The position numbers and the translations under genes were made by a program. Positions 7,601 through 40,481 of a DNA stretch of 64,000 bases are shown piece after piece. The stretch is from assembly GCA_043228905.1 (NCBI GenBank), contig JBHGNT010000005.1, positions 24,304,001-24,368,000 of the forward strand, written 5' to 3'. The notes under the pieces were generated by a model. The model was given only the letters and a program-made list of their open reading frames with translations, made no database searches and was not told where the DNA came from. This stretch comes from Azolla caroliniana (lineage: Eukaryota > Plantae > Polypodiophyta). Positions within the stretch are counted from its first letter, which is position 1; every line of letters starts with the position of its first letter.

Positions 7601-8705
7601 CCGTTCCTCCTCAACCGGAAGAAAGCCACCCCCACCAACCTTGAGCTCCCGTAGCGTTATGTTGGTGAACCGGTGGCCTATGCCGGCCAGATCCCATAGA
7701 CTTGGGTTCGACGTGACCCCTTTCTTTCGTAACTCGCTGCCCTCTTGCAAGGTTGCTACAATTGGCCTCACCTTCTGGTCCATAGTCTTGTACTTTGTAT
7801 GCACATGGGCCGTCCGATCCGACTCGATCCCTCTTTCGAAGTCGGCGATGACTTTGTACATCCGTTCCGAACTAACCGGAATCGTCTGGTCTTCACCGAG
7901 GCCTTCTTCGAGCACGTTCCTCAGATCTCCCAAGGTATCGTCAAAAGAGACCGCCTCCACGGCGCTGCCTATCACTTCGTCAGGGCCGAGGACTCCGCAC
8001 GCCCTGAGACGTTCCTCTGCCCGCTTCTTCTCCGAGCCACTAATGCTGGTTATTGTACATCCTCCGTTGTCAGAGAACCAAAATTTCCCGTCTATCGTAC
8101 AGGGTTTTGTTGGGTGGCAGGTCCCTCCGGATGGTGCAGACCCGGTATGAACCGGATGAGGAGTACTCGGGTACGGAGAGCCGGATGGTGCAGACCTAGT
8201 ATGAACTGGATGAAGAGACATATTCGTAAATATGTTTCTGAGTGTCCATCGAGGCTATACTTGTAAATAGCCGAAAAGTCATATTAGTATAAATATGACT
8301 TAGGGCAAACTTTTAGTAAGTTGTTGTTGTTCATTTTCTTGTTGGTGCAAGAAAAGAGAGTGTGTGTGTAACTGTACAGAGATAGAGAGAGAGAAAGAGA
8401 AAGAAGTCGTTGCCTCTGTTGTAACCGCCGCCTGTGGCGAAGATCTGTGAGCACGAGGTCGGTGCCTCAGTGAACTCACGGTTGTATATTCTTACATAGT
8501 GACAGTTTGCAGCCTGTGGGCTGCCGTGGTTTTTCCCCTAGTTTGGGGTTTTCCACATGAACCTCCTGTGTATCTCCCTCTTCTTCTTGTCGTGTTTTAT
8601 TTCCCGTTTTCTGTGTATGATCCTAAGCTCGGTTGTGGCCGAGCGTTGCGTATAGGGAGCGTTGAGTTCCCGTCAAGTGGTATCAGAGCGAAATCGACAC
8701 AGAAA

Positions 8706-11700: not shown

Positions 11701-12692
11701 GAAGGAGGCGACTTCCTAATACTCCTTCTGTACGTCGATGACATGTTGATTGTCGGACGTGACCAAGTCAAAATACGGATGCTGAAGAAGGCTCTAAACC
11801 GGACCTTCTCAATGAAAGACTTGGGTCCGGCAAGACAGATGATGGGGATGCACATCATTCGAGACCGGTCAGAGAAGCAATTATGGCTGTCACATGAGAA
11901 GTACGTGACAAAGGTGCTTCACCGGTTCAACATGTCAGATGCGAAACCGGTCGGATCGACACTTCCGGCAAACTGCAAGCTGTCCGGTAAGCAAAGCCCG
12001 AAGACGAAAGCAGAGAAGGCGGATATGATGAAGATTCCATATGCCTCTGCCGTCGGGAGCTTGATGTATGCAATGGTTTGTACCCGACCGGACATAGGAT
12101 ACGCAGTCGGAGTGGTGAGCCGGTTTATGAGCAATCCCGGCAAGGAGCACTGGAACGCGGTCAAATGGATACTCCGGTATTTGAAGGGCACTTCAAATAT
12201 GTGTCTCTGATTCGGTTCCGGAAAACTAGCCGGTCGGACATGTCGGCTGATGTGGATACCAGCCGGTCTACATCTGGGTGTGTAATGACATATGCAGGGG
12301 GAGCTGTTTCGTGGCAGTCGAGGCTGCAAAAGACGATTGCATTGTCAACCACGGAGGCGGAGTATATGGCGGCTGTGGAAGCCGGCAAGGAAATATTATG
12401 GATGAAGGACTTCATCGGAGAGCTCGGTATCCGGCAAGAGGAATATCGACTCTATTGCGATAGTCAAAGTGCCATCCACCTTGCTAAGAATGCGGCCTAC
12501 CATTCCCGGATGAAGCATATCCAGCGGAGGTATCACTGGATCCGGGAAAGAGTAGATGACCAGGAGTTCGCACTGACGAAGATTCACACGGCTGAGAACG
12601 GGTCAGATATGCTGACCAAAGTGCTGACACCCGACAAGTTGGACGCATGCCAGAAGAGGATCGGACTGGTAAGACACCCCATGCAGGAGTGA
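8706..12692 (+). pseudogene. Copia gag-pol polyprotein with a few stops and frameshifts
   Basis: ORFs 8907..10970, 11016..11360, 11373..11633, 11542..12210 and 12078..12692 carry the CFYCGKSCHFQKNC knuckle, WHKRLCH, YVDDML and HSRMKHIQRRYHWIRE motifs. Confidence 0.93.
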
Positions 12693-12721
12693 AGGGGGAG
12701 TTTGTTGGGTGACAGGTCCCT

Positions 12722-12920
12722 CCGGATGGTGCAGACCCGATATGAACCGGATGAGGAGTACCCGGCTACAGAGAGCCGGATGGTGCAGACCCGGTATGAA
12801 CCGGATGAGGAGTACCCGGCTACGGAGAGCCGGATGGTGCAGACCCGGTATGAACCCGATGAGGAGTACCCGGCTACGGAGAGCCAGATGGTGCAGACCC
12901 GGTATGAACCGGATGAAGAG
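12722..12920 (+). repeat. 54-bp tandem repeats in the 3' LTR (about 3.7 units)
   Basis: Units start at 12722, 12776, 12830 and 12884. Confidence 0.92.
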
Positions 12921-15900
12921 ACATATTCGTAAATATGTTTCTGAGTGTCCATCGAGGCTATACTTGTAAATAGCCGAAAAGTCATATTACTATAAATATG
13001 ACTTAGGGCAAACTTTTAGTGAGTTGTTGTTGTTCATTTTCTTGTTGGTGCAAGAAAAGAGAGTCTGTGTGTAACTGTACAGAGAGAGAGAGAGAGAAAG
13101 AGAAAGAGGTCGTTGCCTCTGTTGTAACCGCCGCCTGTGGCGAAGATCTGTGAGCACGAGGTCGGTGCCTCAGTGAACTCACGGTTGTATATTCTTACAT
13201 AGTGACAGTTTGCAGCCTGTGGGCTACCGTGGTTTTTCCCCTAGTTTGGGGTTTTCCACATGAACCTCCTGTGTATCTACCTCTTCTTCTTGTCGTGTTT
13301 TATTTCCCGTTTTCTGTGTATGATCCTAAGCTCGGTTGTGGCCGAGCGTTGCGTATAGGGAGCGTTGAGTTCCCGTCAAGAGGTTTCCTACCTATGGTAC
13401 ACGTGTGGGGTTTCTCCGAGGTGTCCGGACTATCGCAGCCCCACGCCTTGATAGCCCTCTCTAAAAATCCCCTCGGCTTTTGCCGCCGAGGGTCTTGCGG
13501 TTGTGCTTGTGGTTCGGTCGCACCGTCAGAAATTGGACGGATTGTCGCCCATCTTGACTCTTCACGCGTGCATACGCCGAACCATTATCCAGCACCTTCA
13601 TCTCCATGCGTGCTACCGTAATGTACAGTTCTCCGAGTATCACCAGATGTAAGGATGTCTCTTGCACGAAGAAGTGTTAGTCTCTCGACATCACCGATTT
13701 TCACCCATACATTGGGGCAGGCCCCGTGTAGCTCCTCCATGGCGCGCGTCGCCGCTTGTATTTTCCACCCGTGCTTTGTGTTGATTGGCCACTTTCCCTT
13801 CTTGTAAAAGTCCCTAGACATCAGGTTGATCTCTGAACCGTGGTCTACCAATGCCACCACCGGCTCCCGGACGTCTCCGATCCGAACAGGGGTCTCCGTA
13901 GTGGCTCTAGCCCAATGCAACTTCGAATAGTGGTTTTCTGCCAACTCGTCTTCAATGGCCATGTCTTCTAGGTGCGTCGTTCGCACCTCCATCGGCTTCT
14001 CCGGCTCTAGATCTGTTGAAGGTCTTTTTCGCTTCATTGGGTCTACGATGGAGTCATGGAATTCTTTCTTGGTGATCCCAAGCACCTCCCTCAGCGACAA
14101 CTTCACCTTGTTGTCGAGGATTTGTTCCTCAAGGACCTTCCGCATGTCCGTCGTCCTTTCTATCTTGGTGCTTAACCGGTAACCGGCTTTCTTTGTTTTA
14201 TCCAGTGCACCGGTAGCACCGACATCATTCTGCTTCGGCCCGAACCGGGTCTCGTACCACTGCGAGGGTCCAGCCCCTCCAGCCTTTCCCGCACGTTTAT
14301 CTTCTACCAGAACCTCGTAGTTCTGGCACGTGGCTTCCATGAAGCCGTTTTTTTCTTCCACCAGATCGTTCCACCCGGTGACCTCCCGGACCCGTCTTTC
14401 CGCACGGTCTGCTTCCTCCCTTCTCAGCCGCACTCCGGTGAGGCGTTCTAGCACCACCGGCGAGAACCCGGAGTCTTTCGTCTTTCGGCCTTCGTCACTC
14501 CTAACCCGGATTCTTGCCGATGCCGAGTAGTGGATGGTCTCCGCGTGGCATGCTGTCGTTTCTTCCATCAGCCTCTTCATTCCTGCTCGTCCGATATTCA
14601 ATTCTAGGGCTCTCCGGGTCTCGCTAGCGTGCACCCTTCTGTTCCATAGGTACACCATGTTAGCCCTTATTGCTTCCGCCAAGTCCACACAGTCCTTCCG
14701 GGCATGACCGACCGTGTCAGACCATAAGCACCAATGCGCACCCGGAGGCCTTCGGTCGCGAGGCTGCTCACCACCGTCCCTCCTTGCTTGTGCAATCTGG
14801 AGGTCTCGTACCATCTGCGTCAGTTCTTCCAGAGCCGCTCCGCCGGACGAGCCCTTGACCACGCCGGTCGAAGTCGAGCATGTCTCAAGCCAATCCCGGG
14901 TTTCCTCTTTGCGCGCTGGCGGGGGTCCCCCGAGGTTTCTTGCCGCAACCGCTCCTGCCCCTGACGTGCCCTTGTTGACCCACTCATGTCATTTGTCAAA
15001 CCAGCCGCAGACCCCTTTAACCACAGCCCAGTCGGCCGTCAGCCCATTGTCCGTCTCCAGCAAGAGACCCACTTGCTCCCGATCCCGCACGTCCACAGCT
15101 TTGACGAATAAAAGGACACGGCTCGTGTCCAATATGGTCTTATCTAGAGCCGAAAGTCATGCGAAGCGTTCCTCAAACTCCCGGAGGAGCACCGACACAT
15201 TCCTCCCCTTTCCTAGGGTCTCCATCCAATCCATAAAGTCCTGCTTCGATAACCGAAGCGTGTCATCAAGCCTGTACCGCTCGAGGAGCCGCGCTTCGAA
15301 TTCTCCCCAGGTTCGGCATCCAGCATGCACCTCAAACACCTCTACGTGGATGCCCGATGTCGCTACCCGAGGGAACCCACCCATGCGCCTTTCCTCCAGG
15401 ATGTCCCTCATCACCATTTCAGCCCGGTAGGCCACCAAATAACTCGTTGTGTCCTTCCCATCGAACCGGCCTATTGTGCTGACAATTGCTTCAGTGGCCC
15501 TGTCGAGGGCGACCGTGCCCTCGCGAGCGCTTACTATCCGATCGACTGCTGCCGCCATGGCTTCGGCGAGCTCTAACCCCCTCATCCTCGATTACTCTGC
15601 CGCCTTGTTTCACATCGGGTTCACCAAATTATGTCGTGTTATTCAGCACGCGCAGGAGAAACCAAGGCGGGACCGGGGGGACCTTGAACCGAGGAATAAC
15701 CGAATAGAGGGAGGAGCACTACGAAACCACGGCCGAGCCGCACACACAGATACACAAAGAACTCACAAACAAGGTTGGACAACGAATAAGGCAAATGTAT
15801 ATATGTATATATGTATATATGTATATATGACCAAAATTACAGCCGGCTAGCCGATAAGTGCCAACTCGTTGACACTAACTCACACAACGCAGGCGACAAC

Positions 15901-24800: not shown

Positions 24801-27800
24801 AGAATGGCATGTTGATGTCTGGGATGCAGTCCCTGAGCACTTTGTTCATCGTGTTTACCATGTGAGCCACCGAGTTCGTCCCTCCTTGTGGTAGGGTACA
24901 CATCCATACTAGGCCGAGAGGAGTCTGCATCGTCGTAATGTCTCTGCTCTCCATGGCTAGTTGGAACTGATCGTACCCCGAGTACAGATCACCAACAGAG
25001 TAAATCATCCTTCCGACGAAGGCCTCCGCGAACTCTCTATGGACGGTCCGATTCCTGCGTTACGGATGGTCACCTTGTTGACCAGTTGCAGGTCCTGAAT
25101 GAAGCGCAGCGTGCCGTTCTTCTTCGGCACCGTAAACCACCGATTCGAATACGGGGCACTCGACGGTTCAAGGATGCCCATCTCCACCTTTTGTTTCAGA
25201 AACTCCATCAACTTCGGGATGTGAGCTCTCGGCACCGGAATCAGTTTGAGATTCCACGGTACATGTGGTACCGTGAAGATCACCATCGGTTCAATGACCG
25301 TCGAGTCCACGCACCAGATCTCCCCCGGCGAGAACGCGAAGGCTTTCCCATGCCTTCCGAGCATTCTCCGAAACCTGTTCTCCTCCGCCGGCAGTAGAAA
25401 GCCACCCCCACCAACCTTGAGCTCCCATAGTGTTATGTCGGTGAACCGGTGCCCTATGCCAGCCGGATTCCGTAAACTCGGGTCCGACGCTCCTCGTTTA
25501 TCCGCTCCTCGCTGCCCTCCGGCAAGGGTCCCACGACTGGCCTCACCTTCCGGTCCACAGTCTTGTACTTTGTGTCCACGCAGGCCGTCCGATCCGACCC
25601 GATCCTTTCCCCAAAGTCCGCGATGACTTCATACATTCCCATCGATCCTACCGGAACGGTTCGGTCTTCTCTAAGGTCTTCACCAATCACCTTTTGCAAC
25701 TCGCCCAAGGTGTCGTCAAAAGAGACCGCCTCCACGGCACCGCTGATCTCTTCGTGGGGGGAGAGGACTCTACATCCCCTGAGCCGCTCCTCCGCTCGCT
25801 TCCATTCCCGGCCGCTGATGCCGGCCATAGTACAACCTCCGTTGTCGGAGAACCAAAATTTCCTACCTATGGTACAGGTCTTCTTCCGTACTATAAATTT
25901 GTGGGGTTTTCCCGGGGTGTCCGGACTATCGCATCCCCACGCCTTGATAGCCCTCTCTAAAAATCCCCTCAGGTTTCGCCGCCGAGGGCCTCACGGTTAC
26001 GCTCATGTTTTGGTCACACCGTCAGGAACTGGACCGAGTGACGCCCGTCCTGGCTCTTGACTCTTGCATAGGCCGAACCGTTGTCCAGCACCTTGGTCTC
26101 CATTCGTGCCGCCGTGATGTATGGCTCTCCTAGTATAACTGGATGCGAGGACGTCTCCTGCACGAAGAAGTGTTGGTCGATCTCGACATCGCCGATTTTC
26201 ACCCGTACATTCGAACAGACTCCATGTAGTTCTTCCGTGGCGTGCGTCGCGGCCCGTATTTTCCAACCATGCTTGGTGTTGATCGGCCATTTACCCCTCT
26301 TGTAGAAATCCATGGACATCAGGTTGATTTCGGATCCATGGTCTACCAAGGCCACCACCGGTTCCGGAACGTTGCCGATCCATACAGGGGTTTCTGTAGT
26401 TGTCCTGGCCCAATGCAGCTTCGTGTAGTGGTTTTCTGCCAACTCGTCTTCTAGGGCCGCATCTTCCAAGTGCGTGGTCCGCACCTCCACTGGCTTCTCC
26501 GGTTCCGGCTTCGTCAATAGCCTTTTCCTCTTCCCCAAGTCTACGATGGAGTCGTAGAACTCCTTCTTGGCGATCCCGAGCACTTCCCTCAGCGACAGAT
26601 CCACTTTGCTGTCGAGGATACGTTCCTCCAGGACCTTTCGCAGGTCTGTGGTCCTTTCGATTTTGGTGCTCAACCGAAACCCCACCTGCTTCTTTCCGTC
26701 CGGCGCGCCTGGGTTGCGGTCCAAACCGGGTCTCATACCTCTGTAGGGGACCGACCCCTCTGTCTTTTCCTGCCCGTTTGTCTTCCACCAAAACCTCGTA
26801 GTTCTGGCAAGCGGCTTCTACGAAGCCCGTCTTCTCTTCGACCGGATCGTCCCAACCGGTGACCCCCTGGACCCGTTGTTCCGCGCGGTTCGCCTCTTCC
26901 TTCTTCAGCCGAACTCCGGAGAGGCCTTCTAGCACTAGCGGCCAGAATCCGGAGTCCTTCGCCTTCCGGGTCTCATCACCCCCGACCCGAATTCCCGCCG
27001 ACGCTAAGTAGTTAACGGCTTCAACATGTCGTGCCACGGCCTCTTCCATCAACCTCTTCATTCCGTCGCGCCCCGTATTTAGTTCTAGGGCTCTCCGGGT
27101 CTCGCTCGCGTGCACCCGCCCGTTCTAGAGGTACACCACGTTGGTCCTAAGCGCTTCAGCGAAATCCGCACAATCCTTCCGAATGTGACCGATCGCGTCA
27201 CACCACATGCACCGCTGCCCAGCCAGCGGCCTCCGGTCGCGAGGTTGTTCGCCGTTGTCTCTCTGGGCATGTGCGATCTGCAGGTCGCGCACCATCTGTG
27301 TCCGCTCCTCTAACCACGTCATTCGATGCCGACCCCGACTCTAGCCAGATTCGGGTCTCTTCCTTTCTACCGGCCGGCACCGATACCGGCTCCTCGAGCT
27401 TCCTCCCCGGGACCGGCCCTGACCCCGACGAGCTTCCGTCGCTCCAATCGTGTCGTTTGTCCAAACGGCTGCAGACCCATTTTACCACGGCCCAGTCTGC
27501 CGTGAGCCCTTCATCCTTTCCAATAGGGGACCCACCTTTTCCCTGTCGAGCGTGTCCACCGACTTGATAAATAGTAGTACTCGACTCGTTTCAAGCATTG
27601 TCCGGTCCAGCGTTGACAGCCGCGCGAACCGTTTTTCGAACTCCTGGAGGAGCACCGATGTGTTCCTCCCTTTTCCAGGGCTTTCCACCCACGCCATGAA
27701 GTCCCGCCTCGACATCCAAAGCGAGTCGTCAAACCCGTACTTCTCAAGGAGCTGCAGCTCAAACTCCTCCCAAGTCTGGCGTTCGACCAGCACCTCGAGC

Positions 27801-28031: not shown

Positions 28032-30117
28032 CGCTGTGGTGAGCGAAAGTTTGACTCCTAGCCGGTCGAACAGCTCTTCGGCCTCTTCTGCGTCCAACTC
28101 ACCACCGTCAGCCACGATCTTCCCCACGCACCCGTATTGGCATACTACGTCCTCAATCAAAAACCGGCACACGGCTGTCGTCGTCTTGTTCTGCAAGGCT
28201 CAGCCTTCAACCTGGTTCGTTAGATCTTCCCGAGCCAGCACCAGATACCGCATCTGTCCTACCCCCATTAGCATCGTCACCAAATCCACCATCCACTTGA
28301 AGTGGACGGTCGGAGGGTAGGTCGGGTGAAGCTCGTCCCAATGTCGGATCATAGAGTGCACCTGACAGCTTTCGCAAGACGTCACGAACCGATGCACGTC
28401 CCGGTATAGTCCCGGCCACCAGTACTTCCCCTTTAGCCTTTCGAACGTGGCCCACGTTCCATGGTGTCTAGCCCACGGGCTATCGTGGTACGCCGCCAGC
28501 AAATCCTCCTGTTCCTCCTTCTTCGCCACCACTCGGAGTGGGATGTCGTTCCTCTTCTTCGGGTGCTTCCATATGTATCCGTCCCAGAGAAAGAATCGGT
28601 AGGCTTTCTTCCGAATTCGGTTGGCCTCGTTCGTTGTCCATGCCGCGTCCGGTGTCATTGTTTTCAGGAACCCGCGGATCTGCAGCCACTCCCCGTCGTA
28701 CTTGCTCTCGTCGAAATCGTTAAGCGTTGAAGATCATTCCGTGCCGGTTGTTACGTAAGCCGCCTTGAAGAAGTCCACGTTGACTTCCTCGTCCTCTGAA
28801 ACCATGCCGCCCTCGTTTTCGAACCTCGCCCTTGAAAGCATATCGGCCATGGCATTGTCTTTCCCGGAAATGTGTCGTATTTCTGGATTCAAGGACTTGA
28901 TATACGCTATCCACCTGAGCATTGCCAGGTCCGGCGTCGCGCATCCGGAAACCATGCCAAGGATCGGCAGGCAGTCCGTCTCGATAATTACCTATGTCCC
29001 GATCAGGTAGTCTTTATCGGCCTTTACCGTCGAAACGACACCCCAGAGCTCGCGTTTAACCTGGGCGTATCCTCGTTGTCGCTCGCTGAGGACCTTCGCG
29101 CCGAACCGGATCGGGGAACGCATGCCGTCCTCATCCTCTTGGTTGACGACCCATCCGATCCCGGTCGGACTCGTGTCTACCGTTACGTAAATTGGAGTGC
29201 TCTTTCCGTAGACAGCCTTTCGTAGCGCTGGAGCCGCAGCAAGTGCTTCCTTCATCTTCCAGACAGACTCCGTATGCTCGTCTCTCCACTCAAATTTTCG
29301 CCCCTTTTTCAGCAACCCGTTGTCGTGAAGAAAACCGTCCCTAGGCGGAATCGGCGCACCAAGGCGTGGGAACCGGTTCTTCGCGCGCGCACGCTCCAAG
29401 TTGTACATAGAAGAGAGTTAGGAGGATAATCGGCAGGAACGGGCCCTAACACGAGTGGAGACAAAAACCGCGCGAACAGTCTCTTCGGTGGCGCGCGCGA
29501 GCTAAGGAACTGCACGAGTCGGCGGCGTAACTACGCGGATGCGTGAAGAACGGAGCGGATCCCTGTTCGAAAGGGACAGGGAATAAAGCTGACAGGACGG
29601 CCTGCTCGTCGGCCTATATAAGGAGCAGGAAAGAGCTGTTGCAGGGATCTCGCGCGGAGAGGACGAAGTGCTGTCGGACCGTTTCTGGACGCTTCTCTCT
29701 CTGTTTTCTTCCTTCTTGAGCTCCATAGCTTTCTTGTGCAGGGTTCCGGGGAGGCTCGCGCTGTTTCGAGGAACGCCCGAGTGCTTCCGGCAGCACCTCC
29801 GACCTGCTACCCCTTTTGTGCGTCGAAGCGAACAAGCATCGGCATCTGTTCGCCGGCCTGTTCGGCTGTAGCCAACCTGTGCCCCATCGAGGGTTGTAGT
29901 CGTGTTAGCCATTTTCTTAATATACATATTTAGTCATTCGCATCTGTCTGTGTCGGTGTTTGTTCGCGTTCTCCGTGCTGAAGGGCCGTGTCCCTGTGTA
30001 TCCCCGGTCCTGCGTAGCCGGTTCTCTCTCTTTCTCCTCCCTCGCTTGCTCTTTGGTTCGAGACCCCCGCGGTCCCGCCTCGTTTCCACACGCACTTGCA
30101 TAATATCTCGACATCTT

Positions 30118-30134
30118 TGGTGAACCCGACGTGA
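30118..30134 (+). promoter_or_regulatory. Primer-binding site complementary to the 3' end of plant tRNA-Trp
   Basis: TGGTGAACCCGACGTGA is the reverse complement of TCACGTCGGGTTCACCA (plant cytosolic tRNA-Trp 3' end, from memory). The same PBS occurs in four copies. Confidence 0.85.
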
Positions 30135-30157
30135 AGGAGGCGGCAGAAGAGCAGAAG

Positions 30158-32242
30158 ATGAGGGGGTCGGATCTTGCAGAGGCCATGGCTTCGGCCGTGG
30201 ATCGGATTGTAAACGCGCGCGAGGGCACCGGTGCCCTCGACAGAGCCATTGAGGCGGTCGTCGGCACGATCGGCCGGTTCGATGGGAAGGATGCCACGAA
30301 GTATTTGGCGTCCTACGGTGCAGAGATGCTGATGCGGGACATTCCGGAAGAAAGGCGTCTTGCCGGATTTCCCCGAGTGGCGATGCCGAGCATCCATGCG
30401 GAGGTGCTCGAGGTGCGGGCGGAGAGCCGTACCTGGGAGGAGTTCGAAGGTCGGCTCCTAGAGAAATACGGGCTGGACGACGCGCTCCGGCTTTCGAAGC
30501 GAAGGTTCATGGAATGGGTGGAGTCCTCGGGGAAGGGAAGAAACGCGTTGGCACTCCTCCGGGAGTTCGAGGAAAGCTTTGCGCGCCTTTCGGCGCTCGA
30601 CCGAACCATCCTGGACACGAGCCGGGTCTTGCTGTTTGTCAAGTCGGTCGACGAGCGGGATCGGGAGCAAGTGGGCCTCTTGCTGGAAACCGAAGACGGG
30701 CTCACTACCGACTGGGCGGCTGTCAAAAAAGTATGTGGCCGTTTCGACAAACGGCGAGAATGGGCGGACAACGGGGCAACCGGGTCGGGCTCGGTCGCAG
30801 GAAGGGAGCTCGAACCAGCGCCACAGGTGCGAAAGGAAGAGACCCGAGAGTGGTTGGAAACTGGTTCGGCTTCGACCGGCGTAGTCAGAGGCTCAACCGG
30901 AGGAGCGGCGCTGGAGGAATTGACGAGGGCGATAAAGGACCTCCAAATCGCGCAAGCCCGAAGGGAAGGTGGCGAACCGGCTCGTGACCGACGGCCGGCG
31001 GCAGGAAACAGGTGCATGTGGTGCGATGAAGTCGGCCACATTCGGAAGGACTGCGGCGACTTCGCGGAGGCGCTGAGGAACAGGGTGGTGTACCTGTGGG
31101 AAGGACGGGTGCATGCCAGCGACACCCGAAGGGCTCTGAGCCGAAACGACGGGCGAGGTGGTATGAAAGGGTTGATGGAAGAGGCAGCGGCCCGACATGC
31201 GGAAACCGTCCACTACTCGGCGTCGGCCGGCATTCGAGTCGGGGGCGGCGAGGCCCGAAGGGAAAGCAAAGCCGGATTCTGGCCGACGATGCTGGAAGGC
31301 CTTGCCGGTGCAAGGCTTAAAGGGGAGGAATCGGACCGTGCGGAGAAACGGGTACGGGAGATGACCGGGTGGAGCGACCCGGTCGAGGAAAAGACGGGCT
31401 TCGTGGAAGCCGCTTGCCAGAACTACGAGGCTCTGGTAGAAGAGAAGCGGGTGGGGAAACCCGGGACGACCGGGCCCTCACATCGATACGAGACCCGGTC
31501 CGGGCCACGACGGGACGAAGCCGGCGGGGCCGGTACGCAAGATAGACCCCAGAAGGGCGGGTACCGTCTGGGGACGGAGATAGAAAGGACCACGGACTTA
31601 CGAAAGGTCCTGGAGGAACGGATCCTCGACAGCAAGGAGTTCCACGACTCCATCGTGGACTTGGTGAAACGGAAGAGGCTGTCAACGGAGACCGAACCGG
31701 AAAGACTGGTGGAAGTGCGGACGACGCACCTAGACGACATGGCGCTGGGGGACGAGTGGGCGGAAAGCCACTATTCGAGACCACACTGGGCCCGAGCGAC
31801 CACGGAAACCCCGGTGAAGATCGGCGATGTCCAGGAACCGGTGATAGCTTTGGTGGACCACGGATCGGAGATCAATTTGATGTCCATGGACTTCTATAAG
31901 AAGGGTAAATGGCCGATCAACACCAAGCACGGGTGGAAAATAAGGGCAGCAACGCGCGCCACCGAGGAACTGCACGGGGCCTGTCCGAATGTGCGAGTCA
32001 AGATCGGCGACGTGGAGATTGACCAGCACTTCTTCGTGCAAGAGACGTCTTCACATCCGGTCATACTGGGAGAGCCGTACATCACGGCGGCGCGAATGGA
32101 GACCAAGGTGCTGGACAATGGTTCGGCCTACGCGAGGGTCAAAAGCCAAGACGGGCGCCATTCGGTCCAGTTTCTGACGGTACGGCCGAACCACGAACGT
32201 AACCGCGAATCCCTCGGTTCCGAAAACCGAGAGGATTTTTAG
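30158..32242 (+). CDS. ORF1: Gag, CCHC knuckle and aspartic protease
   Basis: ATG at 30158 (MRGSDLAEAM); CMWCDEVGHIRKDC; ALVDHGSEINLM...VILGEPY; ends REDF-stop. Confidence 0.93.
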   Translation: MRGSDLAEAMASAVDRIVNAREGTGALDRAIEAVVGTIGRFDGKDATKYLASYGAEMLMRDIPEERRLAGFPRVAMPSIHAEVLEVRAESRTWEEFEGRLLEKYGLDDALRLSKRRFMEWVESSGKGRNALALLREFEESFARLSALDRTILDTSRVLLFVKSVDERDREQVGLLLETEDGLTTDWAAVKKVCGRFDKRREWADNGATGSGSVAGRELEPAPQVRKEETREWLETGSASTGVVRGSTGGAALEELTRAIKDLQIAQARREGGEPARDRRPAAGNRCMWCDEVGHIRKDCGDFAEALRNRVVYLWEGRVHASDTRRALSRNDGRGGMKGLMEEAAARHAETVHYSASAGIRVGGGEARRESKAGFWPTMLEGLAGARLKGEESDRAEKRVREMTGWSDPVEEKTGFVEAACQNYEALVEEKRVGKPGTTGPSHRYETRSGPRRDEAGGAGTQDRPQKGGYRLGTEIERTTDLRKVLEERILDSKEFHDSIVDLVKRKRLSTETEPERLVEVRTTHLDDMALGDEWAESHYSRPHWARATTETPVKIGDVQEPVIALVDHGSEINLMSMDFYKKGKWPINTKHGWKIRAATRATEELHGACPNVRVKIGDVEIDQHFFVQETSSHPVILGEPYITAARMETKVLDNGSAYARVKSQDGRHSVQFLTVRPNHERNRESLGSENREDF

Positions 32243-32298
32243 AGAGGACTGCCAAGGCGTGGGGCCGCGACAGTCCGGATGCTCCGGGAAAACCCCAC
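32233..32298 (+). promoter_or_regulatory. Predicted -1 ribosomal frameshift signal (slippery heptamer plus H-type pseudoknot)
   Basis: G_GAT_TTT at 32233-32239, then TAG; stem 1 32246-32253/32269-32276; stem 2 GTGGGG 32259-32264/CCCCAC 32293-32298. Conserved in four copies. Confidence 0.82.
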
Positions 32299-35200
32299 AT
32301 CTGTACGATAAAACCGTGTACAATAGGTAGAAAAATTTGCTTCTCCGACAGCGGAGCATGTACGATGGTCGGCATCGCCGGCCGAGAGAAAACAAAGACG
32401 GAGGGGAGACTTCGAGCGTGCGGAGTTCTCGGCCCTGACGAAGAAATCAACGGAGCCGTGGAGACAGTCTCCTTCGACGACACCTTAGGAATGCTCGGGA
32501 AGGTAGTCGAAGGAGACCTTAACGGAGACCGGACGATACCGGTATGGTCCGAAGAAATGTACGAAGTCATCGCGGGCTTCGGTCGAGGGCTCGAGTCGGA
32601 ACGGACGGCCCGAGTTAGCACCAAGTACAAGACTGTGGACCGGAAGGTGAGGCCAGTTGCGGCGCCCTTACCGGAGGGCAGCGAATCCCGAATCAAAGGG
32701 GTTGCATCGGACCCCAGCTTACGAGATCCGGCCTGCATAGGACACACCTTCACCAACGAGATGCTCCGCGAGCTGAAGATCGGTGGGGGCGGGTTCCTAC
32801 TGCCGGCGGAGGAAGACCGGTTTCGGAGAATGCTCGGAAGGCACGGAAAAGCCTTCGCATTCTCACCGGAGGAAATCGGGTGCGTAAACCCGACGATCGT
32901 AGAGCCGATGGTGATATTCACGGTACCGCATGTACCGTGGAATCTCAAGCCAATTCAGGTTCCGAGAGCTCACATCCCGAAGTTGATGGAGCTGTTGAAG
33001 CAGAAAGTTGATATGGGCATTCTCGAGCCGTCGAGCGCCCCGTATTCAAACCGATGGTTTACCGTACCAAAGAAAAACGGATCGTTGCGCTTCATTCAGG
33101 ACCTGCAGCCGGTCAATAGAGTGACCATTCGGAACGCAGGGATCGGACCGACCATAGACGAGTTCGCGGAGGCCTTCGCCGGAAGGTCGATCTACTCGGT
33201 CGGTGATCTATACTCAGGGTACGACCAGTTCCAGCTAGCCGTGGAGAGCAGAGACATTACGACGATGCGAACTCCCCTCGGCCTAGTGCGGATGTGTACG
33301 CTGCCGCAAGGAGGGACCAACTCGGTGGCCCACATGGTGAATGCAATGAACAAGGTGCTGAGGGACTGCATCCCGGACATCACCATGCCGTTTCTAGACG
33401 ACATCCCGATCAAGGGGTGCCCGGTAGAAGAGAAGGACGAGACGATCGGGCCGGACGGATGCCGGCGATTCGTGGTGACGCACATCGACGACTGCGAGAA
33501 GGTGCTGCAAAGGCTAGAGGGTGCGAAGCTCACCTTCTCGGGGGAGAAGTCAGCCTTCGGGCAGTCGGAAATCATGGTGGTCGGACATTTATGTGGACCA
33601 TATGGCCGGAAACCGTCTCCGGCAAAGGTAGAAGCCATCTCCGCGATGAAGCCTGATTGCAGCTCGGTCACGGAAGTACGAAGATTCTTGGGAGCATGCG
33701 CCTTCTACCACATATGGATCCCGCATTACGCGCACGTCGCGGAGCCGCTGTACGGATTATTGAAGAAAGGGCGAAGATTCGAATGGCTAGACAAGCACAC
33801 GGAGTCGGTCCGGAAGCTGAAGGAGGCTCTTTCGGCAGCACCGGCGCTCCGAAAGGCCGTCTACAGGAAGGGCACCCCAGTGTACATAACGGTTGACACG
33901 AGTCCGACCGGAATCGGGTGGGTCGTCAACCAAGAAGACGAGGACGGCAATCGGTTTCCGATCCGATTCGGCGCGAAGGTCCTCAGTGAGCGGCAGCGAG
34001 GATACGCCCAGGTTAAACGCGAACTCTGGGGTATCGTTTCGGCGGTGAAGGCCGACAAGGACTATCTGATCGGGGCAGAGGTAATCATAGAGACGGATTG
34101 CATGCCGATTCTCGGCATGGTTTCCGGATGCGCGACGCCGGACCTGGCAATGCTCAGGTGGATAGCGTACATCAAGTCCCTGGACCCGGAAATACGACAC
34201 ATTTCCGGGAAAGACAACGCCATGGCCGACATGCTTTCAAGGGCTAGATTCGATGACGAGGGCGGCATGGTTTCGGAGGACGAAGAGGTCGGCGTGGACT
34301 TCTTCGAGGCGGCATACGTAACAACCGGCGGGACGAGCACTCCGGCGCTTAACGACTTCGACGCGAGCAAGTACGACGGGGAGTGGCTGCAGATCGACGG
34401 GTTCTTGAGGACAATGGCGCCGGATACGTCATGGACGAAAGACGAGGCCAACCGGATCCGGAAGAAAGCGTACCGGTTCTTTCTCCGGGATGGCTATCTA
34501 TGGAAGCACCCGAAGAAGAGGGACGGCGCTCCGCTCCGGGTGGTGGCGACGAAGGAGGAACAGGAGGAGCTGCTGACGGCCTACCACGACAGCCCTTGGG
34601 CCGGACACCGTGGAACTTGGGCCACGTTCGAGAAGATAAAGGAGAAGTACTGGTGGCCGGGACTGTACCGGGACGTGCATCGATTCGTGACAACTTGCGA
34701 GAGCTGTCAGATGCACTCCGTGGTCCGACACCGGGACGAGCTTCACCCTACGTACCCTCCGACCATCCACTTCAAATGGATGGTAGATCTGGTGACGATG
34801 CCAATGGGGGTAGGACAGATGCGGTACCTGGTCCTGGCGCGGGAGGATCTAACGAACCAGGTGGAAGGCCGGGCCCTTCCCAACAAAACGACCGCGGCCG
34901 TATGTCGGTTCCTAATCGAGGACGTGATATGCCGGTACGGGTGCGTCGGGAAGATCGTGGCTGACCGAGGGGAATTGGACGCCGAAGAAGCCGCGGAGCT
35001 GTTCGACCGGCTGGGAGTCAAGCTCTCGCTCACCACTGCGTACAATCCGGAGGCGAATGGAAAGGTGGAGCGCGGACACGGACCGATCGTCAAGGCGCTG
35101 GTTCGAGCATGCGGGGGCCAAGTCGGTAACTGGCCGCGGCTGCTACCTTATGCTTTGTGGGCAGACCGGACCACGCACAGTTCGGTAACCGGGTACATGC

Positions 35201-35721
35201 CGACGGAGCTCATGTTCAGCCAGAAGCCGATCATGCCGATGGAACGGACGATCTCCTCGTGGGCAACGGTCGACTGGAAGGACGAGATGAGCCGGGAGGA
35301 GTTGTTGGCCGCGCGTATGCGACAGCTCGAGCGGAGACCGGAGGACGTGGAACTGGCTGCGGAGAAGCTCCGGGTGGCGAGGACAAAGAACAAAGCCAGG
35401 TTCGACCGAACGCACCGGCTCCGACCGAAGAAAATCGAAGAAGGTGACTGGGTGCTCGTCTACGACAGCAGCCTCGACAACCAGCACCGAGCTACACGGA
35501 AGTTCGCACGAAGGTGGTTCGGGCCTTACGTGGTACGGAGCGCCAATGACAACGGGACATATCACCTGGCGGAACTAGACGGCACGAGAATGGCGATACC
35601 GGTTGCAGGGAAACGGATCAAAGCGTTCAAGAAGCGACACAACGACGAGCCAGACCCGACTCTCCTAGTCAGCAGTGACGAACGATCCGAAAACGAGGAA
35701 GAACCGACGGGCGAGGAATGA
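32239..35721 (+). CDS. ORF2 (-1 frame): RT, RNase H and integrase
   Basis: The frame is open from the slip site through the 1118-aa ORF 32365..35721. Motifs: DLYSGYDQ, LPQG, FLDD, VDTS (RNase H), HHCC, D-D-E, GPY. Confidence 0.95.
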   Translation, partial: LERTAKAWGRDSPDAPGKPHICTIKPCTIGRKICFSDSGACTMVGIAGREKTKTEGRLRACGVLGPDEEINGAVETVSFDDTLGMLGKVVEGDLNGDRTIPVWSEEMYEVIAGFGRGLESERTARVSTKYKTVDRKVRPVAAPLPEGSESRIKGVASDPSLRDPACIGHTFTNEMLRELKIGGGGFLLPAEEDRFRRMLGRHGKAFAFSPEEIGCVNPTIVEPMVIFTVPHVPWNLKPIQVPRAHIPKLMELLKQKVDMGILEPSSAPYSNRWFTVPKKNGSLRFIQDLQPVNRVTIRNAGIGPTIDEFAEAFAGRSIYSVGDLYSGYDQFQLAVESRDITTMRTPLGLVRMCTLPQGGTNSVAHMVNAMNKVLRDCIPDITMPFLDDIPIKGCPVEEKDETIGPDGCRRFVVTHIDDCEKVLQRLEGAKLTFSGEKSAFGQSEIMVVGHLCGPYGRKPSPAKVEAISAMKPDCSSVTEVRRFLGACAFYHIWIPHYAHVAEPLYGLLKKGRRFEWLDKHTESVRKLKEALSAAPALRKAVYRKGTPVYITVDTSPTGIGWVVNQEDEDGNRFPIRFGAKVLSERQRGYAQVKRELWGIVSAVKADKDYLIGAEVIIETDCMPILGMVSGCATPDLAMLRWIAYIKSLDPEIRHISGKDNAMADMLSRARFDDEGGMVSEDEEVGVDFFEAAYVTTGGTSTPALNDFDASKYDGEWLQIDGFLRTMAPDTSWTKDEANRIRKKAYRFFLRDGYLWKHPKKRDGAPLRVVATKEEQEELLTAYHDSPWAGHRGTWATFEKIKEKYWWPGLYRDVHRFVTTCESCQMHSVVRHRDELHPTYPPTIHFKWMVDLVTMPMGVGQMRYLVLAREDLTNQVEGRALPNKTTAAVCRFLIEDVICRYGCVGKIVADRGELDAEEAAELFDRLGVKLSLTTAYNPEANGKVERGHGPIVKALVRACGGQVGNWPRLLPYALWADRTTHSSVTGYMPTELMFSQKPIMPMERTISSWATVDWKDEMSREELLAARMRQLERRPEDVELAAEKLRVARTKNKARFDRTHRLRPKKIEEGDWVLVYDSSLDNQHRATRKFARRWFGPYVVRSANDNGTYHLAELDGTRMAIPVAGKRIKAFKKRHNDEPDPTLLVSSDERSENEEEPTGEE

Positions 35722-35780
35722 AGACGGGCCGGTTTTCTCCGTCCCAACTCTCTTGGCGCATATCGGAGGATGCGCGGTTA

Positions 35781-35792
35781 GGTGGGGGCGGA
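35781..35792 (+). promoter_or_regulatory. Polypurine tract
   Basis: GGTGGGGGCGGA directly before the 3' LTR. Confidence 0.85.
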
Positions 35793-37430
35793 TGTCGTGA
35801 AGAAAACCGTCCCTAGGCGGAATCGGCGCACCAAGGCGTGGGAACCGGTTCTTCGCGCGCGCACGCTCCAAGTTGTACATAGAAGAGAGTTAGGAGGATA
35901 ATCGGCAGGAACGGGCCCTAACACGAGTGGAGACAAAAACCGCGCGAACAGTCTCTTCGGTGGCGCGCGCGAGCTAAGGAACTGCACGAGTCGGCGGCGT
36001 AACTACGCGGATGCGTGAAGAACGGAGCGGATCCCTGTTCGAAAGGGACAGGGAATAAAGCTGACAGGACGGCCTGCTCGTCGGCCTATATAAGGAGCAG
36101 GAAAGAGCTGTTGCAGGGATCTCGCGCGGAGAGGACGAAGTGCTGTCGGACCGTTTCTGGACGCTTCTCTCTCTGTTTTCTTCCTTCTTGAGCTCCATAG
36201 CTTTCTTGTGCAGGGTTCCGGGGAGGCTCGCGCTGTTTCGAGGAACGCCCGAGTGCTTCCGGCAGCACCTCCGACCTGCTACCCCTTTTGTGCGTCGAAG
36301 CGAACAAGCATCGGCATCTGTTCGCCGGCCTGTTCGGCTGTAGCCAACCTGTGCCCCATCGAGGGTTGTAGTCGTGTTAGCCATTTTCTTAATATACATA
36401 TTTAGTCATTCGCATCTGTCTGTGTCGGTGTTTGTTCGCGTTCTCCGTGCTGAAGGGTCGTGTCCCTGTGTATCCCCGGTCCTGCGTAGCCGGTTCTCTC
36501 TCTTTCTCCTCCCTCGCTTGCTCTTTGGTTCGAGACCCCCGCGGTCCCGCCTCGTTTCCACACGCACTTGCATAATATCTCGACACTGTATAACGGCTCC
36601 GTGACGTGAGCGTAATGCGGGATCCATATGTGGTAGAACGCGCACGCTCCCAAGAACCTCCGAACCTCCGTGACCGAGCTACAGTCGTTCTTCATCGCGG
36701 AGATGGCTTCTACCTTAGCCGGAGACGGTTTCCGGCCGTACGGCCCACATAGGTGTCCGACAACCATGATCTCTGATTGCCCGAAGGCCGACTTTCCCCC
36801 GGAGAAGGTGAGCCTCGCGCCCTCCAACCTTTACAGCACCTTCTCGCAGTCATCGATGTGCATCGCCACGAATTTCCGGCATCTGTCCGGTCCGATTGTC
36901 TCGTCCCTTTCCTCCACCGGGCATCCCTTGATTGGGACGTCGTCCAAAAACGGCATGGTGATGTCCGGGATACAATCCCTCAGCACCTTGTTCATTGCGT
37001 TCACCATGTGAGCCACCGAGTTCGTCCCTCCTTGCGGTAGGGTACACATCCGTACTAGGCCGAGAGGAGTTCGCATTGTCGTGATGTCTCTGCTCTCTAC
37101 GGCAAGTTGGAATTGATCATACCCCGAGTAGAGATCACCGACCGAGTAAATCGACCTTCCGGCGAAGGCCTCCGCGAACTCGTCTATTGTCGGTCCGATT
37201 CCGGCGTTTCGAATGGTCACCTTGTTGACCGGCTGCAGGTCTTGAATAAAGCGCAGCGTGCCGTCCTTCTTCGGCACGGTAAACCACCGATTCGAGTATG
37301 GGGCACTCGACGGTTCGAGGTTTCCCATCTTGACCTTCTACTTTAACAGCTCCATCAGCTTCGGGATGTGAGCTCTGGGTACTGGAATCGGTTTGAGACT
37401 CCACGGCACATGCGGTACCGTGAATATCAC

Positions 37431-37686
37431 CATCGGTTCCACGACTGTCGGGTTTACGCACCCGATCTCCTCCGGTGAGAATGCGAAATCCTTCCTGTGC
37501 CTTCCGAGCATTCCCCGAAAACGGTCCTCTTCCGCCAGCAGTAGGAAGCCGCCCCCACCATCGGTTCCACGACTGTCGGGTCTACGCACCCGATCTCCTC
37601 CGGTGAGAATGCGAAATCCTTCCCGTGCCTTCCGAGCATTCCCCGAAAACGGTCCTCTTCCGCCAGCAGTAGGAAGCCGCCCCCAC
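37431..37686. repeat. 128-bp tandem duplication inside the G4 pol ORF
   Basis: CATCGGTTCCACGACTG recurs at 37431 and 37559. Confidence 0.93.
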
Positions 37687-40481
37687 CGATTTTGAGCTCG
37701 CGCAGCGTTATGTCGGTGAACGTGTGTCCTATGCGGGCCGGATTTCGTAAACTCGGGTCCGACGCAACCCCCTTTATTCGCAACTCGTTGTCCTCCAGCA
37801 AGGGAGCCGCGACTGGCCTCACCTTCCGGTCCACAGTCTTGTACCTCGTGTCCACCCGGGCCATCCGATCCGACTCGAGCCCTCTACTGAAGTCCACGAT
37901 GACTTCGTACATCTTTTCCGAACATACCGGAATCGTCCGGTCCTCTTTAAGAACTCCTCCGACTACCTCCCGCAGCTCCCCCAAGGTATCGTCGAAAGAG
38001 ACCGCCTCCACGGCTCCGTTGATTTCCTCTCCGAGGTCGAGGACGCCACATGCCCGAAGTCGCTCCTCCGCCCTTCTCTTCTTCCGGCCAACAACGTCGA
38101 CTATCGTACACCCTCCGTTGTCAGAGAACCAAAATTTCCTACTTATAGTACAGGTCTTCTTCGCTATCATACACTTGTGGGGTTTTCCCGGAGTGTACGG
38201 ACTATCGCAGCCCCAAGCCTTGATAGCCCTCTTCAAAAATCCTCCCGGCTTTCGCCCCCGAGGGTCTCGCGGTTCCTCTCATGGTTCGGTCTCACCGTCA
38301 AGAACTGGACCGAGTGACGCCCATCCTGGCTCTTGACCCTTGCATAGGCCGAGCCGTTGTCCAACACCTTGGTCTCCATCTGTGTTGCCGTGATGTACGG
38401 TTCTCCGAGTATAACCGGATGCGAGGACGTCTCCTGCACGAAGAAGTGCTGGTCAATCTCGACATCGCCGATCTTTACTCGTACGTTTGGGCAGGCTCCA
38501 TGCAGTTCTTCGGTGGCTCGCGTCGCCGCCCGTATTTTCCACCCGTGCTTGGTGTTGATCGGCCATTTTCCCTTCTTATAGAAGTCCATGGACATCAAGT
38601 TGATTTCTGAACCATGGTCCACCAACGCCACCACCGGTTCATGAACATCTCCGATCTTCACGGGGGTCTCCGTGGTCGCTCTGGCCCAGTGCGGCCTGGA
38701 ATAGTGGCTCTCCGCCAACTCGTCTTCCAGCGCCATGTCCTCTATGTGCGTCGTTCGCACCTCCACCAGCTTCTCCGGTTCTGTCTCTGTCGACAGCCTC
38801 TTCCTCTTCACCAAGTCTACGATGGAGTCGTGGAACTCCTTCTTGGCAATCCCGAGCACTTCCTTCAGCGATAGCTCCACCTTGCTGTCGAGGATTCGTT
38901 CTTCCAGGACCTTTCGCAGGTCCGTGGATCTTTCGATTTCTGAGCCCAGCCGGTACCCACCCTTCTTGGGATTATCCTGGGCGCCGGTTACAATGGCCTC
39001 ATTCCGTCTTTGCCCGAATCGAGTTTCATATCGCTACGAGGGCCCGGCCTCTCCGGTTTTCCCTACTCGCTTGTCCTCCACCAGAGCCTCGTAGTTTGGA
39101 CAAGCGGCTTCGACAAAGCCCGTCTTTTCTTCCACCGGGTCACTCCACCCGGTTACCTCCCTGACCCGTTTTTCCGCACGGTCCACCTCTTCTTTCCTCA
39201 GCCGTGCGCCGGCGAGGCCTTCCAGCATCGTCAGCCAGAACCCGGCTTTGTTCGTCTTCGGGGCCTCGCCACCTCCAACCCGAATACCAGCTGACACCGA
39301 GTAGTGGACGGTCTCCGCGTGACGAGCCGCCGCCTCCTCCATCAGCCTTTTCATACCCCCTCGCCCGACGTTCAGGTTCAGGGCCCTTCGGGTCTCGCTA
39401 GCGTGCACCCGACCGTTCCACAAGTACACCACGTTGCTTCTCATCGCCTCGGTGAAGTCCCCGCAGTCCTTCCGGATGTGCCCAACCGCGTCACACCACA
39501 TGCACCTGTTTTCAGCCAGAGGTCGTCGGTCACGGGCTGTTCGCCACCATCCCTCCATGCCTGGGCGATCTTGAGATCCTTTACCATCCGCGTCAGCTCC
39601 TCTAGAGCTGCTCCCCCGGACGAGCCCTTGATCATGCCGGTTGAAGCCAATCCGGTCTCGAGCCAATCTTGGGTCTCTTCCCTTCGCGTTGGTGGTGTTG
39701 GCTTGAGCTTCTTTGCTGCGACAGAGCCCGCCCCTGTCGATCCTTTGTCAACCCATTCCCGCCGTTTGTCGAAACGGCCACAGACCCTTTTCACCACGGC
39801 CCAGTCGTCCGTCAGCCCGTCATCAGTCTCCAATAGGAGGCCTACCTGCTCCCGATCCCGCTCGTCAACCGACTTAACAAACAATAGGACACGGCTTGTG
39901 TCCAGAACGGTCCGGTCAAGCACCGAGAGGCGCGCGAAGCGTTCCTCAAACTCCCGGAGGAGCACTGACGTGTTCCTTCCTTTGTCGGGGGTCTCCACCC
40001 ACTCCATGAAGTCCCGCTTCGAAAGTCGAAGCGCATCTTCAAGCCCGTATATTTCGAGGAGCCGACCTTCGAACTCCTCCCAGGTCCGGCTCTCGGCCCG
40101 TACCTCGAGCACCTCCGTATGGATACCCAGCATCGCCACTCGAGGGAATCCGGCTAGACGCCTCTCTTCCGGAATGTCCCTCATTACCATCTCAGCCCGG
40201 TAGGACTCCAAGTAGCTCGTGGCATCCTTCCCACTGAACCGGCCGATTGTACCGACAACCGCCTCGATAGCCCTATCAAGGGCGTCGGTGCCTTCGCGCG
40301 CACTCACTATACGGTCTACAGCCGAAGCTATGGCTTCTGCAAGGTCTAACCCCCTCATCTTCTACTCCTCTGCCGCCTGTTCACGTCGGGTTCACCAAAT
40401 ATGTCGCGTTGCTACGCGCGTGCGTGGAGAACGAGGCGGGACCACTGGGGTCTTGGACCGAGGAATAGGTGAGGAAGCGAA

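Follow-up and report, generated by a model that had tools for sequence, protein, structure and literature searches.

In Rous sarcoma virus and the avian sarcoma/leukosis viruses (RSV/ASLV), the protease belongs to Gag (PMC12789967), and about 5% of ribosomes shift by −1 near the gag stop codon to make Gag-Pol (PMC5009743). Among plant long terminal repeat (LTR) retrotransposons, the angiosperm Tat elements Ogre and Retand have a fused GAG-PROT followed by a second open reading frame (ORF) for reverse transcriptase (RT), RNase H (RH) and integrase (INT or IN) (PMC6317226; PMC4408406). The two ORFs are parted by an intron-like spacer in Ogre and by a single in-frame stop codon in Retand (PMC6317226), and no lineage tabulated there has GAG-PROT overlapping RT-RH-INT in another frame. 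Phygy, a non-chromovirus Ty3/gypsy clade of Physcomitrium patens (Neumann et al. 2019, PMC6317226), is given there as species-specific, with its ORF organisation listed as 'ND'. As PMC5009743 sums it up, a survey from 2003 recorded nothing but +1 overlaps, in two groups of plants. Here I describe a Phygy-like element in a stretch of 64,000 nucleotides of Azolla caroliniana DNA (contig JBHGNT010000005.1, positions 24,304,001 to 24,368,000; hereafter the window), in which ORF1 encodes Gag and an aspartic protease (PR) while RT, RNase H and integrase lie in Pol, in the −1 frame. Judged from sequence comparison, programmed −1 frameshifting between protease and RT is the best reading of this junction, with a probability of about 0.88. 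The element resembles RSV/ASLV in having the protease in Gag and a −1 shift to Pol after the protease. It differs in being a plant retrotransposon without env, in its G_GAU_UUU slip site and D-H-G protease, and in its pseudoknot, which is predicted and has another shape (8-bp stem 1, 4-9-bp stem 2, about 4 nt between the stems).

The cassette at the junction

30158..32242, + strand: ORF1, Gag and aspartic protease, from the first in-frame ATG (30158) to TAG (32240-32242)
32233..32239, + strand: slippery heptamer G_GAU_UUU, immediately 5′ of the ORF1 stop codon
32240..32245, + strand: spacer of 6 nt containing the ORF1 stop codon, its register equal in 24/24 families with Pol in the −1 frame
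32246..32276, + strand: stem 1, 32246-32253 with 32269-32276, 7/8 pairs in the window copy
32259..32298, + strand: predicted pseudoknot stem 2, in which GUGGGG (32259-32264) would pair with CCCCAC (32293-32298)
32233..35721, + strand: Pol in the −1 frame, with linker, RT, RNase H and integrase

ORF1 extends from stop to stop at 30104-32242 and has the C-terminus EDF*. The −1 frame is open at 32203-35721, and counted from the heptamer it has 1162 codons containing the RT, RNase H and integrase domains. An earlier note on this DNA had described the heptamer G_GAT_TTT followed by TAG, with Pol open from the slip site, and it was found to be accurate on these points. The junction shows the sequence features of a canonical −1 ribosomal frameshifting signal, namely a heptamer of the X_XXY_YYZ type in register, an open new frame, and a predicted 3′ structure at a fixed short spacer. 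G_GA is accepted as the first triplet of a slip site (PMC5009743), and, in line with the earlier note, G_GAU_UUU near a stop codon is a known plant-virus shift site (PMC5009743). Pea enation mosaic virus (PEMV) RNA2 and RCNMV (red clover necrotic mosaic virus), an umbravirus and a dianthovirus, share G_GAU_UUU, a nearby 0-frame stop codon and plant ribosomes with the element (PMC5009743). These viruses have a bulged stem-loop and kilobase-range pairing, whereas the second pairing here is local.

In the proposed mechanism, the majority of ribosomes would terminate after the protease at the G_GAU_UUU-stop. A minority, holding GAU (P site) and UUU (A site), would pause at the pseudoknot predicted 6 nt downstream, and a tandem slip of one base back (GAU UUU to GGA UUU) would yield the transframe sequence ...EDF-LERT.... 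Gag-PR would then be the major product and Gag-PR-RT-RH-IN the minor one, the protease being made at the Gag level and RT-RH-IN being rationed.

Conservation of the frame split

GGATTTT followed by a stop codon occurs exactly four times in the window on both strands, and all four sites belong to one family, as had been reported. The stop codon is TAG in three copies and TGA in one. Besides the window element, the sites are:

13464..13470, − strand: slip site of degenerate copy B; a Copia insertion has displaced the Pol of this copy, which takes up again near 8107
25960..25966, − strand: slip site of degenerate copy C
38236..38242, − strand: slip site of copy D, with stop codon TGA; the window element is inserted antisense into the Pol of this copy

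The four copies are present, but the three on the minus strand are degenerate, with stops, frameshifts or insertions. In the genome, the junction is kept in 30/30 near-identical copies, and the junction pattern has 2216 matches (1115 + 1101), with 0 for the reversed control. A sample that avoids selection on the shift signal consisted of the first 100 of 2683 matches to a protease-coding motif. The RT of 76 of these copies is in the −1 frame, that of 12 in the +1 frame and that of 3 in frame 0 (9 were unscored), and GGATTTT directly precedes the stop codon in 77/100. The three frame-0 copies still contain a stop codon, so that single-ORF copies, whose majority among intact copies the earlier note had named as a refutation, number 0/100. 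Two of the twelve +1 copies belong to the AG_GUU_UUU subfamily described below, and ten look like copy-specific indels, a call made from off-by-one distances or late-opening frames. Among 80 metagenome loci, 73 were scorable and 59 reach RT, which lies in the −1 frame in 57, in the +1/−2 frame in 2 and in frame 0 in none. All 59 have a GG[AGU]UUU[UC] heptamer in the ORF1 register and a Pol open from the heptamer.

From 173 loci, the 117 with a heptamer and an open Pol were grouped into 26 clusters at 85% identity (hereafter families), each represented by one real sequence, and the window copy is the representative of its own cluster. Mutational decay of a single ORF can be weighed on these data. 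Other stops and indels are present in most copies, as decay would have it, but thousands of copies and 26 families share the position of the break, each of the three stop codons occurs, and both frames are fully open in young copies. Decay, which has next to no probability, was rejected on this conservation across copies and families; the split is programmed. Four families (L206, L232, L233 and L238) place the ORF1 stop codon 5 codons beyond the heptamer, inside stem 1. An adjacent stop codon is therefore not required.

The C-termini of 120 ORF1 homologs agree with the split. The terminal motif is [DGN]F in 67, [DG]F-xxx-P[LF] in 22 and VFx in 2, shortly past the protease (91/120 with a D/G/N/V-F tail within a few residues), while 5 have other short tails and 7 lack the anchor. 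The tail-bearing homologs include named Riccia, Adiantum and Physcomitrium proteins. No relative was found in the viral contig collection.

Beside G_GAU_UUU, the heptamer variants G_GAU_UUC, G_GGU_UUU and G_GUU_UUC occur, and all three stop codons are in use at the end of ORF1. The variants bear on the idea that in-frame transcripts arise by slippage of RNA polymerase or reverse transcriptase at the U-run. For reverse transcriptase, slipping at the shift site of a retrovirus has been documented (PMC5737442), but the run here is only 4-5 U long and is interrupted as UUUC in 5 loci, and the 3′ structure is conserved at a ribosomal spacing. The RNA data are poly(A) reads of three runs from a related organism (334, 209 and 689 reads at 85% likeness), and no indel at the slip site is listed in them, at thin cover. 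Transcript slippage is thus a very improbable source of Pol.

Separate synthesis of Pol, by internal initiation, reinitiation or a subgenomic RNA, has in its favour that the protease is already in ORF1, so that Pol need not carry one. Spumaviruses and caulimoviruses make Pol separately. Against this, a Pol-frame ATG was found in the upstream overlap of 0/24 families with the −1 layout, and the first Met after the slip ranges from codon 3 to codon 111 across families, so that no internal start is conserved. The first Met of the window element's Pol (codon 44 after the slip) is kept in copy C, and copy D and the displaced continuation of copy B have Ile there, which bears out the replacement that had been noticed. 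No clustered read starts are listed, at low depth, and separate synthesis would leave the fixed heptamer-to-stem spacing unexplained. I consider it improbable.

Predicted RNA structure downstream of the slip site

The 26 families align across 73 columns with zero gaps, and RNAalifold returned one 8-bp stem, columns 14-21 with 37-44. This stem 1 has two-sided changes at 6/8 pairs, and 203/208 cells pair. A 12-pair version of the stem beats 500/500 shuffles on four of five measures (on the fifth, 4 of 500 were as good) and outscores every slid register. On this comparative evidence, stem 1 covaries at a fixed register. The G-rich loop can pair with a partner 11-16 nt past stem 1 over 4-9 bp in 26/26 families. 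Changes on the two sides match, as in GCGAGA/UCUCGC, CAAGG/CCUUG and UGAGGGUU/AACCCUCG. The families' own partners average −11.4 kcal/mol against −9.3 kcal/mol when swapped, and 0/10000 permutations were as good. These results suggest that stem 2 forms and gives a pseudoknot, less firmly than stem 1 is supported. In 8/9 pairs, the cassette has diverged less than RT at synonymous sites. Rfam gave no match to the cassette at E<=5.

The stem 1 variants among the window copies and the TGGGG/CCCCA pairing are as the earlier note described them. Stem 1 of the window copy is present, but it has a C·A mismatch at the seventh pair. Beyond the window, the layout of Gag-PR and RT-RH-IN, the −1 frame, the slip site and a putative pseudoknot that covaries hold in the genome at large and in diverged families.

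Several points weigh against programmed frameshifting at this junction. The conservation of the slip site within the 26-family alignment is by construction, because the loci were preselected for a heptamer and an open Pol. Kinship among the families inflates the shuffle and permutation tests. The register of stem 2 varies, the best helix having been picked for each family, and about half of the families are individually non-significant; for the window copy alone, stem 2 has a shuffle p of 0.11. Single-sequence folding gave a z-score of −0.25 in the window copy and −0.25 to −2.39 over four copies. Since the structure in a single copy is not beyond chance, the case rests on the comparison between families. 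RNA depth at the junction is only about 6-16 reads, from diverged relatives. Long tails occur in 17/120 homologs, and several fused Gag-PR-Pol proteins exist in databases, among them P0235, a single unnamed distant protein record that runs in frame from the protease into RT. An outgroup with a single ORF or a spliced junction is possible.

The fused proteins also bear on splicing, in which the stop region would be removed and Pol joined to Gag-PR as in Ogre. In Riccia and Physcomitrium there are gene models that leave out the junction and so unite the frames, and one Gag-PR/Pol join is common to three of the Riccia models (P0130, P0155 and P0161), which counts for splicing and against the frameshift. 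The named fused proteins are eukaryotic gene models that miss part of the junction at inconsistent points. Gene predictors appear to span the junction with introns, and many of the "fused" database proteins are therefore probably mis-models. A splice joint, which the earlier note had named as a sign of another route to Pol, was not seen in the 1232 poly(A) reads of the three runs; the junction is thinly covered, and this is weak evidence against splicing. In a simple motif scan, a donor-like motif near the slip site was present in only 6/24 families, at 5 different places, and the Pol frame is open across the entire junction in 59/59 metagenome loci, which an intron would not need. Splicing has a probability of only a few percent, and the −1 frameshift remains the preferred explanation.

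A sister subfamily with Pol in the −2/+1 frame

A sister subfamily that has its Pol in the −2/+1 frame had escaped the earlier note. In L067, L159, L213 and L220, ORF1 ends CAG GUU UUU (G/U)AC UAG and RT is in the +1/−2 frame. This ORF1-end pattern has 86 genome matches, and the subfamily loci are L067/L241 (G000:C1:909506), L213, L220 and L295-L314. RT is in the −2/+1 frame in 23 of 30 AG_GUU_UUU genome loci (−1 in 2, 0 in 3, absent in 2) and in 2/2 metagenome loci with this site. Nine of the 30 loci are open to both locus edges, and in 28/30 the −1 frame reaches UGA after two codons. About 735 plus 1154 codons are open in 7 of 20 full-length stretches, a count that is not a frequency, as 12 of the 20 were picked for open frames. 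The subfamily has LTR identity of up to 100% and retains the NCGN and tRNA-Trp traits described below; it is young and recently active. Between its two lineages, the proportions of nonsynonymous and synonymous differences in Pol (pN and pS) are 0.067 and 0.547 over 248 codons, and Pol is under purifying selection.

In the tree, the AG_GUU_UUU pair is a 100/100 branch within a 98/98 clade containing 15 families of the −1 type, with two −1 families outside. The −2 arrangement is likely derived, because the branch is nested among −1 families. The tree was midpoint-drawn without 12 rows, of which 7 were short loci and 5 were distant proteins, and the P. patens row is an unreliable long branch. The alignment, which has no gaps, puts the U-run, stem 1 and Pol frame of the subfamily in register with those of the −1 families. 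What differs is just the incoming frame, which comes one base later, with a spacer of 5 nt. With ORF1 displaced in this way, a −2 shift would be called for if the device is unchanged, and it is reasonably probable that the subfamily uses −2 frameshifting.

It is known that −2 frameshifting is optimal at spacers 1-2 nt shorter (PMC3458567) and that shorter spacers favour −2 (PMC4937337). L229 (1258-1330), which has G_GUU_UUC, a 6-nt spacer and Pol in the −1 frame, is a natural control for the −2 subfamily. On the other hand, 11/24 families of the −1 type can add one stem 1 pair, which gives an effective 5-nt spacer and speaks against reading the −2 shift from the spacer. A clean rule, 6 nt for −1 and 5 nt for −2, is weakened by these extendable stems.

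The users of −2 frameshifting listed in PMC5009743 are phage Mu, arteriviruses and Trichomonas vaginalis virus 1. The sister subfamily resembles the −2/−1 nsp2TF site of PRRSV (the virus that causes porcine reproductive and respiratory syndrome) in its AG_GUU_UUU heptamer and in the immediate −1 stop codon (PMC7618472; PMC4937337). PRRSV requires nsp1-beta and poly(C)-binding protein (PCBP) on a C-rich motif 10 nt downstream, without RNA structure there, whereas the sister subfamily has a predicted pseudoknot 5 nt downstream and its product is an essential polymerase. A CCCANCUCC motif of the PRRSV type, placed 10 nt downstream and served by a trans-activating protein, was not found in the subfamily. 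The likeness to PRRSV is limited to the slip site, because stem 1 occupies the CCCANCUCC position.

Frame offset alone cannot separate a +1 shift from a −2 shift, and UUU_U in the L220 lineage permits perfect +1 re-pairing. In the main lineage, however, a +1 shift would put tRNA-Phe on UUG, while −2 gives UUU in both lineages. The heptamer is identical to the PRRSV −2 site (PMC7618472), and the putative 3′ pseudoknot inherited from −1 ancestors is retained. A +1 shift in the subfamily is unlikely. Termination-reinitiation at a nearby AUG, to which I give a similarly low chance, would draw on a Pol-frame ATG that lies 2-5 codons upstream of the slip, near the ORF1 stop codon, in both lineages. 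But the position of this ATG differs between the two lineages, and such an ATG is found in the same frame of 7/24 families of the −1 type, as a by-product of Asp-rich tails. In addition, the U-run and both stems are kept, and synonymous change is low (0.165 against 0.547 in RT). Some other route to Pol is less likely again than either, and −2 frameshifting is still favoured for this subfamily. RNA reads on the subfamily number 6, 5 and 1, too few for inference.

Comparison with other plant retrotransposons

The earlier note had called the strategy unusual for a plant retrotransposon. This does not hold for the Gag-fused protease, which Ogre and Retand have as well, but it would hold for the proposed frameshift as the joining device. 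The novelty is the putative frameshift that would join Gag-protease to RT-RH-IN in a plant element. Where protease is fused to Gag, frameshifting would be a third means of limiting RT, beside splicing in Ogre and the in-frame stop codon in Retand. Plants would gain a conserved −1 frameshift retrotransposon, against the +1 overlaps alone of the 2003 survey (via PMC5009743), and the 'not determined' entry for the ORF organisation of the Phygy type would be filled.

I give a little better than an even chance to the wider proposal that a single retrotransposon lineage of non-seed plants has an RSV-like post-protease cassette across mosses, liverworts and ferns and that a still-active branch switched from −1 to −2 when the incoming frame moved by one base while the U-run and pseudoknot stayed in place. 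If true, retrotransposons would here have their first −2 frameshift, an essential polymerase would be served by a natural −2 signal driven by RNA structure, and the switch would be an evolutionary test of the mRNA-tension model. The −1 and −2 cassettes differ mainly by one register base; thus, the spacer-length (tension) rule, which comes from engineered reporters, is testable on natural sequences in plant ribosomes. The available parts of PMC7466625, PMC11963269 and one bioRxiv preprint contain nothing on such a cassette, and neither an account of this cassette nor a frameshift in Phygy or −2 shift in a retrotransposon was found in the literature covered, which lies outside subscription journals.

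The protease domain

31781..32200, + strand: retropepsin-fold protease domain, from an AlphaFold2 model and Foldseek

The C-terminal domain of ORF1 alone has no Pfam match and no PDB sequence match, and PDB sequence searches with the protease or ORF1 profile gave nothing useful. Its AlphaFold2 model has a predicted local distance difference test score (pLDDT) of 85, and the best Foldseek matches of the model are Ddi1 and retroviral proteases (E 3e-6). The protease is placed in ORF1 because of these matches, in line with what had been claimed, and the modelled domain has a retropepsin fold. Pfam retropepsin-type matches are weak and occur in 11-12/34 homologs. PF13352 (DUF4100) matches 33/34 ORF1 homologs, and DUF4100 therefore marks the Gag-PR protein of this lineage.

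The active-site triad is a non-canonical D-H-G at 31856-31864. Among 120 homologs (P0003-P0122), it is D-H-G in 113, DSG in 1 and DCG in 1, and the motif was not found in 5; the canonical D-T/S-G motif of retropepsins is not that of this lineage. The DHG-coding pattern has 2033 genome matches. The hydroxyl of the canonical D-T/S-G stabilises the protease dimer (PMC7072860). It may be speculated that a D-H-G protease dimerises weakly or is a weak enzyme, in which case dosage at the Gag level would explain the layout.

The element and its surroundings

29317..29320: left target-site duplication CCGT, of the NCGN type, with the right counterpart CTGT at 36586-36589
29321..30113, + strand: 5′ LTR, 793 bp, TG...CA, 792/793 identical to the 3′ LTR
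30118..30135, + strand: primer-binding site, complementing the 3′ 18 nt of tRNA-Trp, by comparison with genomic tRNA-Trp(CCA) genes
31013-31054, + strand: CCHC knuckle of Gag
31630..31645, + strand: site of a 42-nt in-frame Gag deletion private to the window copy, from comparison of near-identical copies
33064-33588, + strand: RT domain of Pol
33784-34173, + strand: RNase H domain of Pol
from 34552, + strand: integrase domain of Pol
35776..35792, + strand: polypurine tract, from sequence
35793..36585, + strand: 3′ LTR

The LTRs, the primer-binding site, the polypurine tract and the domain order Gag-PR-RT-RH-IN are those of Ty3/gypsy elements. The Pfam scan of Pol gave no match to a chromodomain or to a second RNase H (aRH), with one RNase H region. 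The internal part is filled by the coding region, with no extra ORF. The window element is a young Phygy-like Ty3/gypsy LTR retrotransposon. It resembles Phygy in the 4-bp NCGN duplication, the tRNA-Trp primer, the lack of a chromodomain, aRH and extra ORF, and the short length, and there are named homologs in P. patens. Its length of 7.27 kb is just below the 7656-9968 bp given for Phygy from one species, size being called a weak classifier in PMC6317226; the window subfamily measures about 7.3 kb and the AG_GUU_UUU subfamily about 7.9 kb. In contrast to the Phygy survey, the ORF organisation is resolved here, and relatives occur in Riccia and Adiantum. The Tat traits of Ogre and Retand, namely aRH, a 5-bp target-site duplication and a tRNA-Arg or -Lys primer, are not seen in the element.

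The window copy had been called intact. Both of its frames are open, but it carries the private 42-nt in-frame deletion in Gag: 29/30 near-identical copies are 42 nt longer near 31637, the 30th being the window copy itself, and the length difference also shows in RNA reads. Of 20 sister copies fetched, an LTR pair was obtained in 18 (98.5-99.9% identity), and both frames are open at full length in 7. Where both ends were resolved, the duplications are NCGN on both sides in 16/16 copies and identical in 15.

An older copy of this lineage has the young element lying antisense in its Pol, the nest spanning 28032-40382 of the window. The Copia element splitting copy B has an LTR pair at about 8127-8684 and 12830-13387. 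Arrays of a 54-nt tandem repeat were found at 3716-4059 and 12668-12957, the second inside a Copia LTR region. In the AT-rich part of the window, 59878-62039 holds two overlapping ORFs with matches to RTs like those of long interspersed nuclear elements (LINEs). Elsewhere in the genome, matches to the tRNA-Trp 3′ end form long clusters at G000:C8:17796786-17823371 and C16:4989495-5105657, with a spacing of ~1.2 kb on C8, and L271-L274 are match sites other than these two clusters.

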